Assembly (NCBI GenBank): GCA_965204375.1
Contig: OZ241986.1
Location: 4,160,001 to 4,224,000 of the forward strand
Reading direction: 5' to 3'
DNA length: 64,000 bases
DNA from: Candidatus Latescibacterota bacterium
Lineage (GTDB): Bacteria; Latescibacterota; UBA2968
Shown here: positions 21,888 through 34,386 of the stretch, piece after piece
Position numbering within the stretch: position 1 is the stretch's first letter
How the letters are laid out: the number at the start of each line of letters is the position of its first letter
The notes under the pieces: model-generated
What the model saw: the letters and a program-made list of their open reading frames with translations, nothing else
The model's database searches: none
Told to the model about the DNA's origin: nothing
Translations under genes and position numbers: made by a program

Positions 21888-23318
21888 ATGCCAGAACAAC
21901 CGAACATCCTCCTCTTCATCAGCGACCAACAGCGCACGGACACCTTGAAATGTTACGGCAACGACTGGATACAATCGCCGCATCAAGACGCCCTTGCAGA
22001 ACGCAGCTTCGTCTTTGAAAACACCTACGTCACCCAACCCGTATGCACCCCTGCCCGCGGATCGCTCATGACCGGACTATACCCGCACAACCACAAATGC
22101 ATGGTCAACCGCGACATATTACACGACGAAATCCCATCCATCGCAGAAATGCTACCCGACACCTATCGGAAAGCCATGTTTGGAAAATGGCACCTCGGCG
22201 ACGACTCCGTGCGACAACACGGCTTTGACGAATGGATCAGCACAGAAGACGACCACCGCAACAAATACTCCCGCCCCGGCCTGCCCTTCAGCAGCTATTA
22301 CTACTGGATGAAAGAACAAGGCATAGAACCCCAAAACAACAGCGCCACTGGAGAAATCATCTTCTCACCGCGCCAGCGCTCCCAACTCCCCGCAGAATAC
22401 CAGATGGGCACCTTCATCGCCAACCACTCCGAGCGATTCATCCGGGAAAACACACACCGCCCCTGGCTCCTCGTATTCAGCACATTTGAGCCACACCCCC
22501 CAATGACCGGACCCTACGACGGCATGTACGACCCCGATGCCCTGCCCGTTGGCCCCACCTTCATCAAAAAACCAGAAGGACACGCCCTGTTTAACCGCGC
22601 GCGTGCAGAACACTACCTCAGCAACAGGGTTGAAGGTCAAGACATGCGACAAGAAGCATCCTGGCGAAAACTGCGGGCGCAATACTACGGCAACGTAAAA
22701 ATCATCGACGACGCCATAGGCCGCATGGTACAGACACTGGAAGAAACCGGACAAATGGAAAACACCATCTTTGCCGTCACCAGCGACCACGGCGAAATGG
22801 CAGGCGACCACGCCATGTTCGAAAAACGCGCATTCTACGAAGAATCCGCGCGCGTACCCATGATCTTAAGCGTCCCGTGGCTCACACAATCGCAAAAGCG
22901 CATCGACGGCGTCTTTGGACACGCGGACCTGATCGCCACCCTCATAGAATTGGCCAATCAGCCACGCCTCCAAACCCTCCCGGGCCGCCCGTGTGCCGAC
23001 GTCTTAAACGGCGAAACCGACCTGCGCAATCACACCGCATTCATGGAATGGAACGGCATTGGCGACCGCAACCTGGGCAACCCCAAAATCAACCTCATGG
23101 CCACCTTGCCCTGGCGCTGTGCCGTAACCGGAGACCGGTGGAAACTCAACTTATGTGCCGGCGACCAGTGCGAATTATTCGACCTGAACAACGACCCTTA
23201 TGAAGAAACCAACCTCTATGACGACCCTGCGCACCGCGACCGGGCGCGGGAAATCGCGGCTCGCATACGACTGTGGCAACACGAAACAAACGACCACGCG
23301 CCATTGCCTGCGATCTGA
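21888..23318 (+). CDS. Sulfatase
   Basis: QPNILLFISDQQR, CTPARGSLMTGLYPH, GKWHLG, SDHGEM; AAGGAG RBS. Confidence 0.93.
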   Translation: MPEQPNILLFISDQQRTDTLKCYGNDWIQSPHQDALAERSFVFENTYVTQPVCTPARGSLMTGLYPHNHKCMVNRDILHDEIPSIAEMLPDTYRKAMFGKWHLGDDSVRQHGFDEWISTEDDHRNKYSRPGLPFSSYYYWMKEQGIEPQNNSATGEIIFSPRQRSQLPAEYQMGTFIANHSERFIRENTHRPWLLVFSTFEPHPPMTGPYDGMYDPDALPVGPTFIKKPEGHALFNRARAEHYLSNRVEGQDMRQEASWRKLRAQYYGNVKIIDDAIGRMVQTLEETGQMENTIFAVTSDHGEMAGDHAMFEKRAFYEESARVPMILSVPWLTQSQKRIDGVFGHADLIATLIELANQPRLQTLPGRPCADVLNGETDLRNHTAFMEWNGIGDRNLGNPKINLMATLPWRCAVTGDRWKLNLCAGDQCELFDLNNDPYEETNLYDDPAHRDRAREIAARIRLWQHETNDHAPLPAI

Positions 23319-23516
23319 ATCAGGATTCTCAGGATTTAAGGATGAACAGGATGAAAGGCAAAAAGCGAAAGGCAAAAGGCGAAAGGCGTCTGAATCAGGA
23401 TTCTCAGGATTTAAGGATGAACAGGATGAAAGGCAAAAAGCGAAAGGCAAAATCAAAACCTCTGGATCGCGGCTTACACCCTGCCGCGATGACAAGTGCG
23501 CTCATCACGCCCCTAC
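23314..23516. repeat. Composite repeat cassette with 75-bp tandem duplication
   Basis: TCTGAATCAGGATTCTCAGGATTTAAGGATGAACAGGATGAA at 23314 and 23389, GGCAAAA/GCGAAAG heptamers, CTGGATCGCGGC..GCCGCGATGAC, ...GCCCCTAC. Confidence 0.9.
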
Positions 23517-29171: not shown

Positions 29172-30629
29172 TCACTTCCCCCTTCTCAACCCCATCATCT
29201 TCGACGCGATCTCGACCTCCTCGGCAAATGCCTCTGCCGCCTCGTCATACGTATCAAACGGATCGCGGAAACTCAAATGGTATTCATTTTCCAAATACAC
29301 CGAATCCCAATCCACAATATACCGCACCCGATTTTGCGACAACGTCTTCACCATCGCCGCCCGCGCCTTTGCCCGCGTATCAGCCGGAGGCGTTCCACAA
29401 GCCTCTTCAACGCGATCATCGGTCAACACGCGCTTCATCTTACCCTGTTGCTCCAGATCGAAATACAACCCGCGATTGGGATCGATATTGTGATACTCCA
29501 GATCCAAACTCTGCAACCACGGATCGTCCCAACCCAAATTCTCCGACTCGCGAAACGCATCCAACAACCACTTCTTCGCCACCCAGTCCACACGATCTGT
29601 CAACTGCATCGGATCGGATTCCAGATCATCAAGTGTGCGCTCCCACTCAGCCAGCACCCAATCCGACTCCTCATCCAGACCTCTCAAATGGCGCTGCGAC
29701 AAATCCAGATAAACGCGCTGAATATCAATCGCCGAAATAGACCGCCCATTCTGCCGGTCCAGAATCCACTTATGTGTTGGATCGCGCGAAATCTCCTTCA
29801 ACGCCCATACCGGATCACCCAACCCCAGATCCTGGGGAAAAATCTTCCGCTCTAAGAGATTCAGCACCATCGCAGTCGTGCCAACCTTCAGCGCCGTCGC
29901 ATACTCCGACATATTTGAATCGCCCACCAGAAGGTGCAAACGGCGGTACTTGCTGTGATCGGCCAGCGGTTCATCTCGCGTATTGATAATCGCGCGAGAA
30001 AACTGAATCCATTGATAAATCTCTGTCACAATATGATCCGCACGCTGAGAAATCTGGAAATTCACCGGATCTTCCCGGTTGTCGGCATCGCGCGCACTGT
30101 GCCCATAATAATAAAAACTGTCGTCATAACTGCCCACGCGACCTGCACCGCAAAAAATTTGGCGCGTCACCAAAAACGGCAACAGCGCGGGAATGACAAC
30201 CGTTGAAAACGGCACATTGCGCCTGACCAGATAATTTTCGTGACAGCCAAACGTCGCGCCCGTATAGTGATCGATATTATTCTTCAAAAACGACGCTTCT
30301 TTAGCCAACCCCAGCGCGTGCAATGCCCGATGCAAAATGAGATCGCCAGCCCGATCAAAAGCCACAATATCCCACAACCCCATACACTCCGGCGTCGCGT
30401 ATTCCAAATGCCCCATATCGATATAAACCCGCCCGGCATTAAACAAAAACCCCCCATTGCCCGGGGGTTCATCCCGTCCGCGATAGTGAATATCCACAAT
30501 CCCGATACGGTCAACGTGAAAAATATGATCCTTAACCTTCACCGAAATGGTATCGGGACTCACAAAACCCTCGTGCTCGGGAGCCAAACACCCATACTCG
30601 GTTTCTATGCCAAAAATGCGATCTCTCAT
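29172..30629 (-). CDS. pafA: Pup/UBact-protein ligase PafA
   Basis: RIFGIETEYG, FLFNAGRVYIDMGHLEYATPEC, KNN, GCHENYL, SQRADHI, INTRDEP, RRLHLLVGDSNMSE; no Dop loop. Confidence 0.9.
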   Translation of the reverse strand: MRDRIFGIETEYGCLAPEHEGFVSPDTISVKVKDHIFHVDRIGIVDIHYRGRDEPPGNGGFLFNAGRVYIDMGHLEYATPECMGLWDIVAFDRAGDLILHRALHALGLAKEASFLKNNIDHYTGATFGCHENYLVRRNVPFSTVVIPALLPFLVTRQIFCGAGRVGSYDDSFYYYGHSARDADNREDPVNFQISQRADHIVTEIYQWIQFSRAIINTRDEPLADHSKYRRLHLLVGDSNMSEYATALKVGTTAMVLNLLERKIFPQDLGLGDPVWALKEISRDPTHKWILDRQNGRSISAIDIQRVYLDLSQRHLRGLDEESDWVLAEWERTLDDLESDPMQLTDRVDWVAKKWLLDAFRESENLGWDDPWLQSLDLEYHNIDPNRGLYFDLEQQGKMKRVLTDDRVEEACGTPPADTRAKARAAMVKTLSQNRVRYIVDWDSVYLENEYHLSFRDPFDTYDEAAEAFAEEVEIASKMMGLRRGK

Positions 30630-30647
30630 GGGGCCTCTCAATGATAG

Positions 30648-30721
30648 ATGGGCGAGGCATGCCTCGCCCCTACAATGAACCACCATCCGCAACAACGGGC
30701 AGGTTTAAAACCTGCCCCTAC
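30648..30721. repeat. REP-like hairpin doublet
   Basis: GGGCGAGGCATGCCTCGCCCCTAC and GGGCAGGTTTAAAACCTGCCCCTAC; the second GTAG overlaps the prcA TAG stop. Confidence 0.85.
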
Positions 30722-31509
30722 AATATAAACGGCGCCAGCGCGGGCGCAATTTCTTCTGCATCGACATTGCGGTACTTGTTTTTACCCACCCGCGACCGCT
30801 CGAGCACCACCGCCTCCACCTCCAGATCCACCAACTCCGTCACAAGCACATCAACCACATCGACCTCCCCAGCCACCTGATCCAACGCGTCGGCATCGGT
30901 GGGCACCTCGTCCATCTTCCCAATCCATCGCCCCATCGCCCATGCGCGAAGCGCGGCACCTGCGGCATCAGACAGAGACAACGCCTCCGTATCCAAACCC
31001 GACAACTCGCGCACCATCATCACATCCGCCTCCACAACGCCCCCCACAGCAGCACACCTCTCGTGCCGGTGAAACGCGCCATCGTAATCCACAGAATAAA
31101 AAATGTGCGCGCCCTCCTGCCCATCCAACTCCGCGAGAAGCACCCGCGCCAAAAAAGGAGACCGCACCACATCGTCAAACCCCGCCTTAATCGCAGGACC
31201 GAGACCAAAATACACAATCTGACGCAGTGTCACATCGTCTTCCGAATAATTAAACCCAATCGAATGCGCCATATCAATCGCAGCCTGCCGCAGATTCTCG
31301 ATATCCGTCGAATGCCCAATCCCCGCGAGCAAGATGCGATCGTACACCTCAAACACCTTTTGCTGACTCTGCGACAGCGTCAACAACAAAATCCCATCCT
31401 CGTAACCCACCCCCACGACCGGACTACCCTGCCGGATCTGATCCTCAATATAATCTCGCCGATTCGCAACCGCCTCTGCCCAGCGATACGGCTCATCAGA
31501 CAACATCAT
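30718..31509 (-). CDS. prcA: 20S proteasome alpha subunit
   Basis: RRDYIEDQIRQGSPVV, KVFEVYDRI..AGIG, DIENLR..A, YSEDDVT; operon context. Confidence 0.88.
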   Translation of the reverse strand: MMLSDEPYRWAEAVANRRDYIEDQIRQGSPVVGVGYEDGILLLTLSQSQQKVFEVYDRILLAGIGHSTDIENLRQAAIDMAHSIGFNYSEDDVTLRQIVYFGLGPAIKAGFDDVVRSPFLARVLLAELDGQEGAHIFYSVDYDGAFHRHERCAAVGGVVEADVMMVRELSGLDTEALSLSDAAGAALRAWAMGRWIGKMDEVPTDADALDQVAGEVDVVDVLVTELVDLEVEAVVLERSRVGKNKYRNVDAEEIAPALAPFIL

Positions 31510-31694
31510 GCGCGTCCCGCCTCCTCCCAATTAAACTTTCTCAATCTTCGTATCCTTCGTGTCCTTCGTGTCCTTCGTGGATACTGAATCATGCGCGTCC
31601 CGCCTCCTCCCAATTAAACCTTTTCAATCTTCGTATCCTTCGTGTCCTTCGTGTCCTTCGTGGATACTGAATCATGCGCGTCCCGCCGCCTCCC
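31505..31694. repeat. 83-bp tandem repeat (2.3 units) at the prcB-prcA junction
   Basis: ATCATGCGCGTCCCGCC(T/G)CCTCCC at 31505, 31588 and 31671, separated by two 59-nt inserts containing (CTTCGTGTC)n. Confidence 0.95.
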
Positions 31695-32475
31695 CATCCA
31701 CATATTGAACATAAAGCTGTCGCAACGCCTCGGTCTCAATCTCCGCCAGACCCGACGCCGTAATCGTCTTCACCGACGGAAAAATATCAGCCGACCGCTC
31801 GTATCGCCCCGTCGCCGAATCGTATTCCGACGCCGTATCCAGAAGCTGAAGCGCGTGTCCAATTGCCGCATCGCGATCCATATCCACAAACCGCCGACCG
31901 CCCCAGCGATTCAAATAATACATCGCACCGCGAATCGCCGGCGACCCCGACCCCGTCGTCGTAAAATCGGCACTCTCGAACTGCGCCCCCAGCGCATCGT
32001 AAAAATAAATTTTACCCCGCGCATCCACCTGGTCATACGTCGCAAAAATCGGAATCACAGCGCCAATACCCTGCATCGCCATCGGCAAATTATCCTTAAT
32101 CAACAGCGACAACCGGCGCAACTTCGCCTGCAAACTCATCTCCTGAAGCAAACGGCGGCGATAATACTGAAACGCGTGCTCCAGAATCCGCGCAATCTCA
32201 AACGCAATCGAAGGCGACCCCGAAATCGCCATCACCGAAAACGCATCCAGATCGATCACCTTATCCGCGCGGTCGTAAAGCACCATATTGCCCGCAGTGG
32301 CGCGGCGATCGCCTGCAACGAGCACCCCATCGGCATATTGAAAAGCCAGAATCGTCGTCGCATCCGTAGGCTCAAAAGGCAACGTGCGCTCGGCCGGCAC
32401 ATCGCCCAAATTCTCACCCGGAAACCTGTAGCCCGTCTGCCGCAGCAAATCGACAAAATCCCCACCCGATTGCAT
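31672..32475 (-). CDS. prcB: 20S proteasome beta subunit (Thr-nucleophile, with propeptide)
   Basis: A|TTILAF, AGDRRAT, DKV, GSGS, DSATG. Confidence 0.9.
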   Translation of the reverse strand: MQSGGDFVDLLRQTGYRFPGENLGDVPAERTLPFEPTDATTILAFQYADGVLVAGDRRATAGNMVLYDRADKVIDLDAFSVMAISGSPSIAFEIARILEHAFQYYRRRLLQEMSLQAKLRRLSLLIKDNLPMAMQGIGAVIPIFATYDQVDARGKIYFYDALGAQFESADFTTTGSGSPAIRGAMYYLNRWGGRRFVDMDRDAAIGHALQLLDTASEYDSATGRYERSADIFPSVKTITASGLAEIETEALRQLYVQYVDGEAAGRA

Positions 32476-32478
32476 AAG

Positions 32479-32670
32479 CTACTCGCCTGTACGCTGGCGA
32501 TAACGCCGCGCCTGATTGGGATCAACGCGCCGCATGCGCCGCAGCAAATCGCGTGTATCTGGCCGCTCCACCTTCGGGCGCGCGGGGCCACCATCGCCAT
32601 CATCACCCGGACCAGGTCCGCCCGGATCGACCGGCTTCGTCCGTCGCTCAAACTGTAAGACCTTATCCAT
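32479..32670 (-). CDS. ubact: Ubiquitin-like modifier UBact (Pup analogue)
   Basis: 63 aa, disordered G/P/D-rich N-terminus, C-terminal LLRRMRRVDPNQARRYRQRTGE with the R[T/S]G[E/Q] end; lies between dop and prcB; AAGGAGG RBS. Confidence 0.92.
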   Translation of the reverse strand: MDKVLQFERRTKPVDPGGPGPGDDGDGGPARPKVERPDTRDLLRRMRRVDPNQARRYRQRTGE

Positions 32671-32692
32671 CTACGGCCTCCTTAAAAAAATG

Positions 32693-32872
32693 TCTGAATC
32701 AGGATTCTCAGGATTATAGGATGTGCAGGATGAAAAACTATCTGAATCAGGATTTACAGGATTATAGGATGAACAGGATGAAAAACAAAATCAAAACCTG
32801 CTGGATCTACACCCTTCACAGCCTCTCTTTTTTATCTGCGTCCATCTGCGTCCATCTGCGGATCACACTTCC
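32693..32872. repeat. Composite repeat cassette between dop and ubact
   Basis: TCTGAATCAGGATT module twice (32693, 32741) plus an ATCTGCGTCC module that overlaps the dop stop. Confidence 0.9.
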
Positions 32873-34386
32873 TTCAACGCCTCTAAAAAACTCTCTAACG
32901 TCTCCGAATTATCCAGCACCTCATTATAACGCGCTACCCGCCCCTCATCCACCAATAATTTCATATCCACGGCATGCTGGCGGCCATTGCGCTTAAACAC
33001 AATGCGATCCCAGTTAATCGACGACACATAATCGCCGAACTTCTCCAAACTGCGCCCTCGAAAATACGCCCGCGTACCCGAAGGCGGCTCCGACATTGCC
33101 GCTGCCACCTCATCATCGCCCACCAGACGCACCATCTGCCCCTGCGACTCCAGCAAATAATACAACCCCGCATCCCGATCCACATTGCTATATTCCAGAT
33201 CCTGGCTCTGCATCCAGAACAAATCATCGGGATTGTCCCACGCCAGATTCTCCGCCTCGCAAAAACTATCGATCAACCACTTCTTCGTCACCCAATCGCA
33301 CACCCCCACCAGATCCATCGGATCGCGGCTCAACTTCTCCAGTACATCTTCCCACGCCGACAACACCCAATCCGTCTCTCGATCCCGCCCGGCAAACTCG
33401 CGCCGTGCCAGAGCCAAAAACGCATCCTGAATCTCAACCGCGGGAATTAGGCGATGACCGGGACCCTCGACCTCAACCAGCCACGCATGCGACTGATCCC
33501 GGGCGATATTCTTCATCGCCGCAATCGGATCCTTCAGCCGATAATCGGGCAAACAATCCGCCTCAATCAAATCGATCACCAGCGCCGTTGACCCCACCTT
33601 GAGCGCCGTCATATACTCCGACATATTGGCATCGCCCACAATCACGTGCAACCGGCGATATTGCGCCGCATCTGCGTGGGGTTCATCGCGCGTATTCACA
33701 ACCGGACGCTTGTGCATCGTATCCACACTCGCGATCACCTCGAAAAACTCCGCGCGCTGCGACAACTGATAAATCGGTGCGCGATCCTCCCGCTCGACAC
33801 CCACCTTGCCAGCCCCGCAAAAAATCTGCCGCGTGGGGAAAAACAGCAACAACCCCTGTAATATACGCTCGAAAGGCACCGAACGATCCATCAAATAATT
33901 CTCGTGACACCCATAGCTATGCCCTTCGAAATCCGTATTGTTCTTATACATCCGCACAACGCCCTGATCGAGCATCTCCGTGCGCCGCTGCGCGCAAATA
34001 TCCACAATGCGCTCCCCCGCCTTATCCTGCGCCACAAGCTCGAACAAACTTATGCACTCACCCGTTGAATACTCCGGATGCGTGTGATCGTTGTAAAACC
34101 GGGACCCATTGTAAATAATCAAATCGCTCTTCAATTCTTTAAACGGAATTTTCCGCTTGCGGTCCTGTTGCATAAGCTCCTTTTCATCGGCATCATTCAA
34201 CAGATTTTTAACCTCAAACCCCCGCTCATCCCGACGGGGATTCTCCAGCCGATAATCCCACAACGGAACAAACTTGCCCTGCTGATAGCATCGAATCAAC
34301 TGCATCGACTCTTCGACCACATCGACCTTATCCACCTCGTCAATCGTGATCCCATATTCTGTTTCTATACCGAATAAGCGCGTCAT
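32863..34386 (-). CDS. dop: Pup/UBact deamidase-depupylase Dop
   Basis: FGIETEYGI, Dop loop WDYRLENPRRDERGF, NGSRFYNDHTHPEYS, YKNNTD..SYGCHENYL, NTRDEPHAD. Confidence 0.9.
   Translation of the reverse strand: MTRLFGIETEYGITIDEVDKVDVVEESMQLIRCYQQGKFVPLWDYRLENPRRDERGFEVKNLLNDADEKELMQQDRKRKIPFKELKSDLIIYNGSRFYNDHTHPEYSTGECISLFELVAQDKAGERIVDICAQRRTEMLDQGVVRMYKNNTDFEGHSYGCHENYLMDRSVPFERILQGLLLFFPTRQIFCGAGKVGVEREDRAPIYQLSQRAEFFEVIASVDTMHKRPVVNTRDEPHADAAQYRRLHVIVGDANMSEYMTALKVGSTALVIDLIEADCLPDYRLKDPIAAMKNIARDQSHAWLVEVEGPGHRLIPAVEIQDAFLALARREFAGRDRETDWVLSAWEDVLEKLSRDPMDLVGVCDWVTKKWLIDSFCEAENLAWDNPDDLFWMQSQDLEYSNVDRDAGLYYLLESQGQMVRLVGDDEVAAAMSEPPSGTRAYFRGRSLEKFGDYVSSINWDRIVFKRNGRQHAVDMKLLVDEGRVARYNEVLDNSETLESFLEALKEV

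Follow-up and report, generated by a model that had tools for sequence, protein, structure and literature searches.

At the precise point where prcB and prcA, the genes for the proteasome beta and alpha subunits, overlap by 4 nt (ATGA), the lineage of this sponge- or coral-associated Candidatus Latescibacterota has gained 166 nt in a recent insertion. The locus lies in the window, the whole stretch of 64,000 nucleotides analyzed here, to which coordinates given without a genome label refer. (Elsewhere, G000 is the studied genome, C1 its contig, and G016 the closest genome.) prcB (31672..32475, minus strand, from the ORF list) ends in ...DGEAAGRA with its TGA at 31674-31672, and prcA (30718..31509, minus strand) starts with MMLSDEPYRW, its ATG at 31509-31507 overlapping the last TGA of the inserted array. 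PrcB matches TIGR03690 with 171.4 bits (E=2.2e-50), short of the curated cut-off of 191.9, and PrcA matches TIGR03691 with 80.9 bits (E=9.3e-23), short of the cut-off of 139.05. Both genes sit in a UBact-type proteasome operon on the minus strand (29172-34386), which also holds UBact itself (63 aa, 32479-32670, minus strand; NF033388, 80 bits, above the cut-off) and two PafA/Dop-like genes, one Dop-like (32863-34386, minus strand) and one PafA-like (29172-30695, minus strand).

Tandem Repeats Finder describes 31505-31694 as 2.3 copies of a unit with period 83 (97% matches, score 359), and among its 3054 rows for the whole 6.34-Mb genome, this array is the only one with that period. On the minus strand of this stretch, the end of prcB (the last 23-24 nt, with the Shine-Dalgarno [SD] sequence and the ATGA) is present three times at 83-nt spacing. 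The three repeat copies, A1, A2 and A3, are separated by two inserts of 59-60 nt that differ from each other at two bases (31623/31540 and 31620/31537). The unit is divided here into 60 nt of insert and 23 nt of repeat; the split becomes 59 + 24 if an ambiguous T after the TGA is assigned to the repeat. Along the minus strand, the array begins with A1 (31672..31694; 23 nt, GGGAGGCGGCGGGACGCGCATGA), which is the end of prcB, with an SD-like GGAGG, the ATGA and a derived C at 31688. It is followed by insert copy a (31612..31671; 60 nt), composed of TTCAG, a cassette core of the form TATCC(ACGAAGGAC)n...GGATA, and a unique 3' tail ending in TTTAATT. Next come A2 (31589..31611; GGGAGGAGGCGGGACGCGCATGA), which has the ancestral sequence, and insert copy b (31529..31588; 60 nt), with two bases unlike those of copy a. 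Last is A3 (31506..31528; GGGAGGAGGCGGGACGCGCATGA), likewise ancestral, from which prcA takes its SD and ATG. A preliminary description, made from the letters of this DNA, had recognized three prcB ends at 83-nt spacing around two near-identical inserts, and a duplication that regenerates the ribosome-binding site and the ATGA start/stop at the gene border; both observations hold, the former in Tandem Repeats Finder as well as in the sequence.

Which state came first? prcA was found in all 41 related genomes, and the junction was read in the 29 relatives that yielded loci (20 of the same genus, four of the same family and five of the same order). All 29, including the 20 in the genus, have an empty ATGATG junction, with prcB running straight into prcA. 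In X4 and X5, runs of two other studies whose contigs are 95-99% alike, position 31522 is joined to 31689, so that exactly 166 nt are skipped. The ATGA overlap that had been foreseen on removal of the inserts is thus the junction carried by the relatives and by these contigs. The closest genome, G016, has ~93-96% DNA identity at the prcB/prcA locus.

The array itself is supported by sequencing data from two runs (X1 and X3), in which zero-difference unitigs span both outer junctions and also the insert-repeat-insert junction at 31575-31617. Since the latter junction is possible only with two units or more, at least two units are real, and a single unit, the reading that would have spoken against the preliminary description, is not what the unitigs contain. 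Each unit variant was found in at least one run. The X1 and X3 data are Logan contigs, maybe from the source study, and their depth is unusable for copy number, so the count is given as at least two units. The unit counts seen are either zero (29 relatives; X4 and X5) or at least two (this genome; X1 and X3). Scans of JGI metagenomes with two junction patterns gave no matches, which is no evidence of absence elsewhere.

The relatives also set the direction of change among the repeat copies. It had been proposed that the two downstream copies carry a change that moves an SD closer to the prcA ATG. The reverse is the case: GGAGGAGG is read in 20/20 genus relatives, all of which have A at 31688, and is the ancestral state, so that the downstream copies are unchanged and no SD has moved. 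It is A1, the copy attached to prcB, that has mutated, gaining an A>C change at 31688 that replaces Glu by Ala and turns the PrcB tail from GEEAGRA into GEAAGRA. Nor do three copies imply two insertions: at 81/83 identity, the two units are compatible with a single insertion and a later tandem duplication of the insert together with its repeat.

What does the insertion do to the junction that it entered? The stop codon of prcB is kept, and the native initiation region of prcA (23 nt) is kept complete in spite of the insert. Moreover, and unnoticed in the preliminary description, each 83-nt unit reads as a 28-codon ORF that is joined to both neighbors by ATGA, giving the chain prcB > sORF1 > sORF2 > prcA with a -4 overlap at all three junctions. 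sORF1 (31589..31675, minus strand; 28 codons and a stop, MIQYPRRTRRTRRIRRLKRFNWEEAGRA) starts with an ATG that overlaps the prcB TGA and ends with a TGA that overlaps the next ATG. sORF2 (31506..31592, minus strand; 28 codons and a stop, ending in LRKFNWEEAGRA) has a TGA that overlaps the ATG of prcA. The 16S rRNA tail of the organism, CACCTCCTT, contains CCTCC, and GGAGG is therefore a proper SD in this organism. According to the accessible part of a study of termination-reinitiation (PMC10666635), the process drops steeply with distance and is almost abolished by a spacer of ~20 nt, so a bare spacer of 166 nt would be expected to uncouple prcA.

The chain of small ORFs could be due to chance, at an estimated ~10%, as it needs a unit length of 2 mod 3 and 27 codons without a stop, and the encoded peptide probably has no meaning of its own. 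At the two bases that differ between the units, the peptides show conservative K/R swaps. These swaps were rejected as a sign of selection, since two transitions 3 nt apart necessarily fall in the third position in some frame. The 83-nt unit contains no promoter-like or terminator-like site, matches no Rfam family, and has no unusual fold (z = -0.37). A genome-wide scan for small ORFs between two long ones was uninformative, as spurious ORFs and permissive start codons produced hundreds of matches.

The core of the insert is a member of a dispersed family of (CACGAAGGA)n short-repeat cassettes. In a BLAST search of the genome with the unit, the core, (T)ATCC ACGAAGGAC ACGAAGGAC ACGAAG, is found at 15 further loci, and it is present in 19/20 genus genomes. 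The full-length 83-nt unit is matched only at prcB/prcA, with 42 nt or less matching elsewhere. The best match beyond the locus is 42 nt at 93% (G000 5885406-5885447), and of the 88 bases of the query, ~45 at most are covered by any match. The insert is unique in its 3' third, and neither the genome itself nor 20 others of the genus yielded a full-length donor of the 60 nt. A likeness between the start of the insert (ATGATTCAGTAT) and the prcB tail (ATGTTCAATAT) was judged to be chance, since the TAT belongs to the cassette family. The genome as a whole is rich in tandem arrays with units of 6-14 nt, 1031 of them after merging. Blocks of cassettes can themselves be duplicated at a higher order: a 48-nt unit is repeated 2.1 times at 32685-32786, between the Dop-like gene and ubact, and a 75-nt unit 1.9 times, at 100% identity, at 23314-23452. 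The modules of these units are (CAGGATnnn)n and (GAAAGGC)n. There is also a dispersed, REP-like hairpin element, GGTGTACAACTGGCCG-N-CTCTCAGGCCAGTTCA, with short-repeat modules on both flanks (for example at G000:C1 336740-336800, 4720690-4720750 and 4022830-4022870). A REP/RAYT origin of the prcB/prcA insert was rejected, as Y1_Tnp has no matches in the genome.

Is a flanking duplication the way in which the cassettes generally spread, as the preliminary description had suggested? Comparison of 1.2 Mb of G016 with G000 gave 80 clean indels, 50 of which are 20-300 bp long. No flank overlap exists in 31 of the 50, and overlaps are 8 nt or less in 40 and at least 10 nt in ten. These ten comprise two plain tandem duplications, three short-repeat expansions, one duplication within a gene, and four foreign inserts accompanied by a target duplication of 10-27 nt, namely prcBA (overlap of 27 nt for an indel of 166), G000 4090788 (24/82), G016:945586 (19/66) and G000 4720679 (10/79). 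Nor do the sister cassettes generally carry such repeats: at 13 of the 15 other CACGAAGGA loci, any direct repeat at the flanks stays within the random level (a control mean of 12.9 of 20, with 16 or more reached in 2% of 300 controls), and of the two with a signal, one has a real flanking repeat. Most cassettes arrive without flanking duplication, and with 4/50 small indels showing it, the duplication does not serve as a general clue to their spread. Stop-anchored and unanchored scans for repeat-insert-repeat layouts returned mostly protein-coding repeats, CRISPR arrays and paired operator-like sites, with too few clean events for statistics.

The same comparison of genomes turned up larger inserts. 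Relative to G016, G000 has a gene-sized insert of 433 bp with 27-nt direct repeats at its flanks (G000:C1:4358360-4358767) and another of 360 bp with an HTH-like small ORF and 12-nt direct repeats (G000:C1:4518030-4518379). Four inserts of 1206-1207 bp in G016 (C1 ~672595, ~750839, ~1324344 and ~1329099), absent from G000 and with overlaps of 9, 10, 2 and 5 nt, are probably an active insertion sequence. G000 also encodes two reverse transcriptases that match RVT_1 above the cut-off (G000:C1:3938347-3939084 and 1647901-1648704), and one of the genes directly adjoins a CRISPR array at ~3939411-3940624.

Four more events in G000 resemble that at prcB/prcA, in that a cassette insert is flanked by a re-copied gene end, with duplications of 16-25 nt. 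The first (G000:C1:4090706-4090811; L118:1757-1862) follows a BNR sialidase-like gene and consists of 23 nt + 59 nt, without a chain of small ORFs. Its insert is common to six genus genomes including G000; eight genomes are empty at this spot and two have a different insert. Within the genus, at least three independent invasions have hit this spot: besides the 59-nt cassette, G006 and G004 carry a hairpin-containing insert with a partial re-copy of 13-15 nt, and G015 has an inverted-repeat element of 282 bp flanked by a 5-bp TCTAA duplication. The second event, after an amidohydrolase gene (19 nt, d = 104), is found in six genomes with varying repeat copy number, and seven are empty; its right junction falls inside a CAGAT common to the cassette repeat unit and the target. 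The third lies just before the stop of the gene for glycogen debranching enzyme (25 nt + 35 nt), whose ORF it lengthens by 12 residues (6 genomes occupied, 11 empty). The fourth, after an HpcH aldolase gene (16-18 nt, d = 102), is present only in G000, with 8 genomes empty, and contains, in inverted orientation, the 42 nt that match the prcBA insert.

In each of the five events (these four and prcBA), the junction is -3 to +4 nt from the stop codon of a real gene; a sixth event, in G016, is in an intergenic spacer. Short tandem arrays in general are also found close to stops: 90 of the 1031 arrays have their start -1 to 4 nt past the stop codon of a long ORF, versus ~18 expected from random non-ORF positions, a ~5-fold excess in a test that uses crude ORF calls and may be biased by stop-rich repeat units.

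How did the cassette come to enter a 4-nt overlap? The reading that we favor, with a probability of roughly 0.45 and thus tentatively, is a single templated insertion by template switching, after which unequal exchange produced the two units. A replicating strand would have left the target at or just after the prcB stop, at a GAT microhomology, and copied cassette DNA from elsewhere. It would then have returned to the target at the GGAGG-rich SD, 23-24 nt farther upstream, so that the stretch from the SD to the stop became duplicated. Next, the two repeat copies would have allowed the unit to be duplicated, by unequal exchange or by slippage. Ribosomes might start afresh at the regenerated SD, or they might be relayed through the two small ORFs by termination-reinitiation; either way, the insert would be tolerated because the duplicated module restores initiation. 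The microhomology at the junctions (GAT on the left at prcBA; CAGAT on the right in the amidohydrolase event) amounts to 2-6 nt, which is too short and in too few cases to set it apart from chance. The length of the duplication varies across events, from 16 to 27 nt. This variability, the CAGAT junction, the mostly duplication-free cassette indels and the lack of a Y1 transposase in the genome speak against a transposase with a fixed ruler. On the other hand, the absence of a donor counts against templated insertion, and the second event of near-identical geometry (59 nt + 23 nt) would fit an enzymatic ruler. Selection surely filters the survivors at prcBA, where about one to four insertion positions keep the prcB stop and the prcA SD with a 23-24-nt duplication.

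That near-identical geometry also speaks for another, unlikely, source: a non-autonomous mobile element whose enzyme would make cuts staggered by ~16-27 nt, with repair then leaving a long target-site duplication. Two independent events share the arrangement (59-60 + 23-24 nt at prcBA; 59 + 23 nt at G000 4090706-4090811), and the same 42-nt cassette piece occurs within two duplication-flanked inserts, both of them specific to G000. Insertion sequences with long, variable duplications exist, for example in the IS1634 group. However, the lengths here are spread over 16-27 nt with no characteristic value, and the inserts have no common ends, the TCAGTA start of the second insert not being the ancestral state in relatives. 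There are no terminal inverted repeats either: TATCC...GGATA brackets only the inner core, and the actual ends, TTCAG... and ...TTTAATT, are not inverted and do not recur in the second event. An element of this kind would also be at odds with the overlaps of 8 nt or less in 40 of the 50 small indels, with the flanking repeats missing at 13 of the 15 sister loci, and with the zero matches to Y1_Tnp, the REP-associated type. With no terminal inverted repeats, a length of 16-27 nt and no Y1 transposase, the transposon-type target-site duplication of the preliminary description is not upheld.

A comparably doubtful possibility is that duplication and insertion were separate steps. The last 23-24 nt of prcB would first have been re-copied in tandem by a slippage-type process, a cassette would then have entered the newly made noncoding stretch directly behind the stop without a duplication of its own, and finally the unit would have been duplicated. 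The bare re-copy would be neutral, since the stop would still be provided by the first copy, and the SD and ATG by the second. This order of events agrees with the general tendency of short-repeat arrays to hug stops (the 90 of 1031 versus ~18 expected), and with duplication-free gain being the common mode for cassettes. Its intermediate, repeat next to repeat, is nevertheless not seen in any relative at the five loci, and two rare events would be needed per site, five times over. G000 has one candidate for a tandem duplication of unique sequence (13-45 nt) at a gene end, which is 13 nt long, at 4230332 and maybe at a gene end; the others are multiples of short repeats.

Much less probable is that the array is kept as a tuner of expression, either loosening the 1:1 coupling of PrcB and PrcA or encoding functional Arg-rich 28-residue peptides. 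The ORF chain is intact in both units and the K/R swaps are conservative, as such a role would have it, but any pair of transitions 3 nt apart would also be silent in another frame, which leaves the pattern without weight. Furthermore, the array is confined to one lineage, with none in 29 relatives and no matches to the two junction patterns in JGI metagenomes, and no such chain exists at the second event. About as remote is a dedicated paste process that targets the ends of translated ORFs, in which cassettes would be put at the stop and the 16-27 nt ending there, about a ribosome footprint, re-copied. Guidance would come not from DNA sequence but from the terminating ribosome or the 3' end of the mRNA, for instance via one of the two reverse transcriptases. 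An assembly artefact, in which a repeat was collapsed or expanded, would be conceivable in a metagenome-assembled single contig, but is scarcely credible given the zero-difference unitigs from two runs across both outer and the unit-to-unit junctions, with each unit variant in at least one run.

The arrangement at prcBA recalls several known systems. The closest are the MIRUs (mycobacterial interspersed repetitive units), attributed to Supply et al. (1997), which in the accessible parts of the sources are described as units of 40-100 bp at 41 loci (PMC2734929) that insert with a -4-coupled ORF (PMC12548453). At the rnc-fpg locus, relatives have only a few bases between the genes that carry a MIRU (accessible part of PMC2734929). 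As far as these descriptions go, the likeness extends to a head-to-tail unit of 40-100 bp between co-directional operon genes (here, 83 nt twice, between prcB and prcA), to a unit ORF that overlaps the flanking stop and start at -4 (here, ATGA at three junctions), and to relatives with almost nothing between the same genes, as at rnc-fpg. By the same descriptions, homologous MIRUs occupy ~40 loci, whereas the 83-nt unit is unique in its genome and only a 28-42-nt core is dispersed. MIRUs have a mycobacterial host, whereas the prcBA array is in another phylum, and the coupling module at prcBA (SD + ATGA) is a copy of the target and not part of the element. The resemblance, which is one of layout, would thus be functional and not familial.

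Other likenesses are more partial. Elhai et al. reportedly described very small mobile repeats and heptamer tandem repeats of cyanobacteria in 2008. Here, too, tandem arrays with units of 7-10 nt fill intergenic DNA and modules recur at many unrelated loci with no recognizable transposase, but the phylum is another one, and the prcBA insert enters a gene overlap and duplicates a 23-24-nt target. Small variable segments at bacterial gene borders, ~10% of which are flanked by direct repeats according to the accessible part of PMC2884548, are likewise strain-variable and have direct repeats in a minority (4/50 here); templated insertions and tandem duplications mediated by microhomology in bacterial genomes belong to the same group of parallels. 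At prcBA, by contrast, a signal for translational coupling is rebuilt by the duplication, with later amplification of the unit. Ectopic integration of CRISPR spacers (neo-CRISPR) gives rise, via target duplication, to a layout of repeat-insert-repeat-insert-repeat, such as that seen at prcBA. The prcBA inserts are near-identical and 59-60 nt long, however, in contrast to spacers of ~35-40 nt, and CRISPR-type integration was rejected on lengths, the duplication being 23-24 nt versus 32-37 nt for the CRISPR repeats of this genome.

Throughout the order sampled (29/29 relatives), the proteasome subunit genes keep their ATGA overlap, which is therefore among the places least likely to tolerate an insertion. 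The prcBA locus shows how a coupled junction of this kind can be invaded, the insert returning the SD, the start and the stop as a copy of the target. It constitutes a dated natural experiment, as the insert is absent from genomes that are ~95% identical, and it offers a direct test of whether termination-reinitiation relays through serial -4 overlaps. It also amounts to a small-ORF relay of the MIRU type in a phylum with nothing alike described: the literature searched on such repeats gave no Latescibacteria paper. If the paste process aimed at translated ORF ends were true, it could enter even 4-nt gene overlaps harmlessly. The most promising lead is the clustering of cassettes and re-copied gene ends at stop codons, a wider and unexplained habit of the genus.
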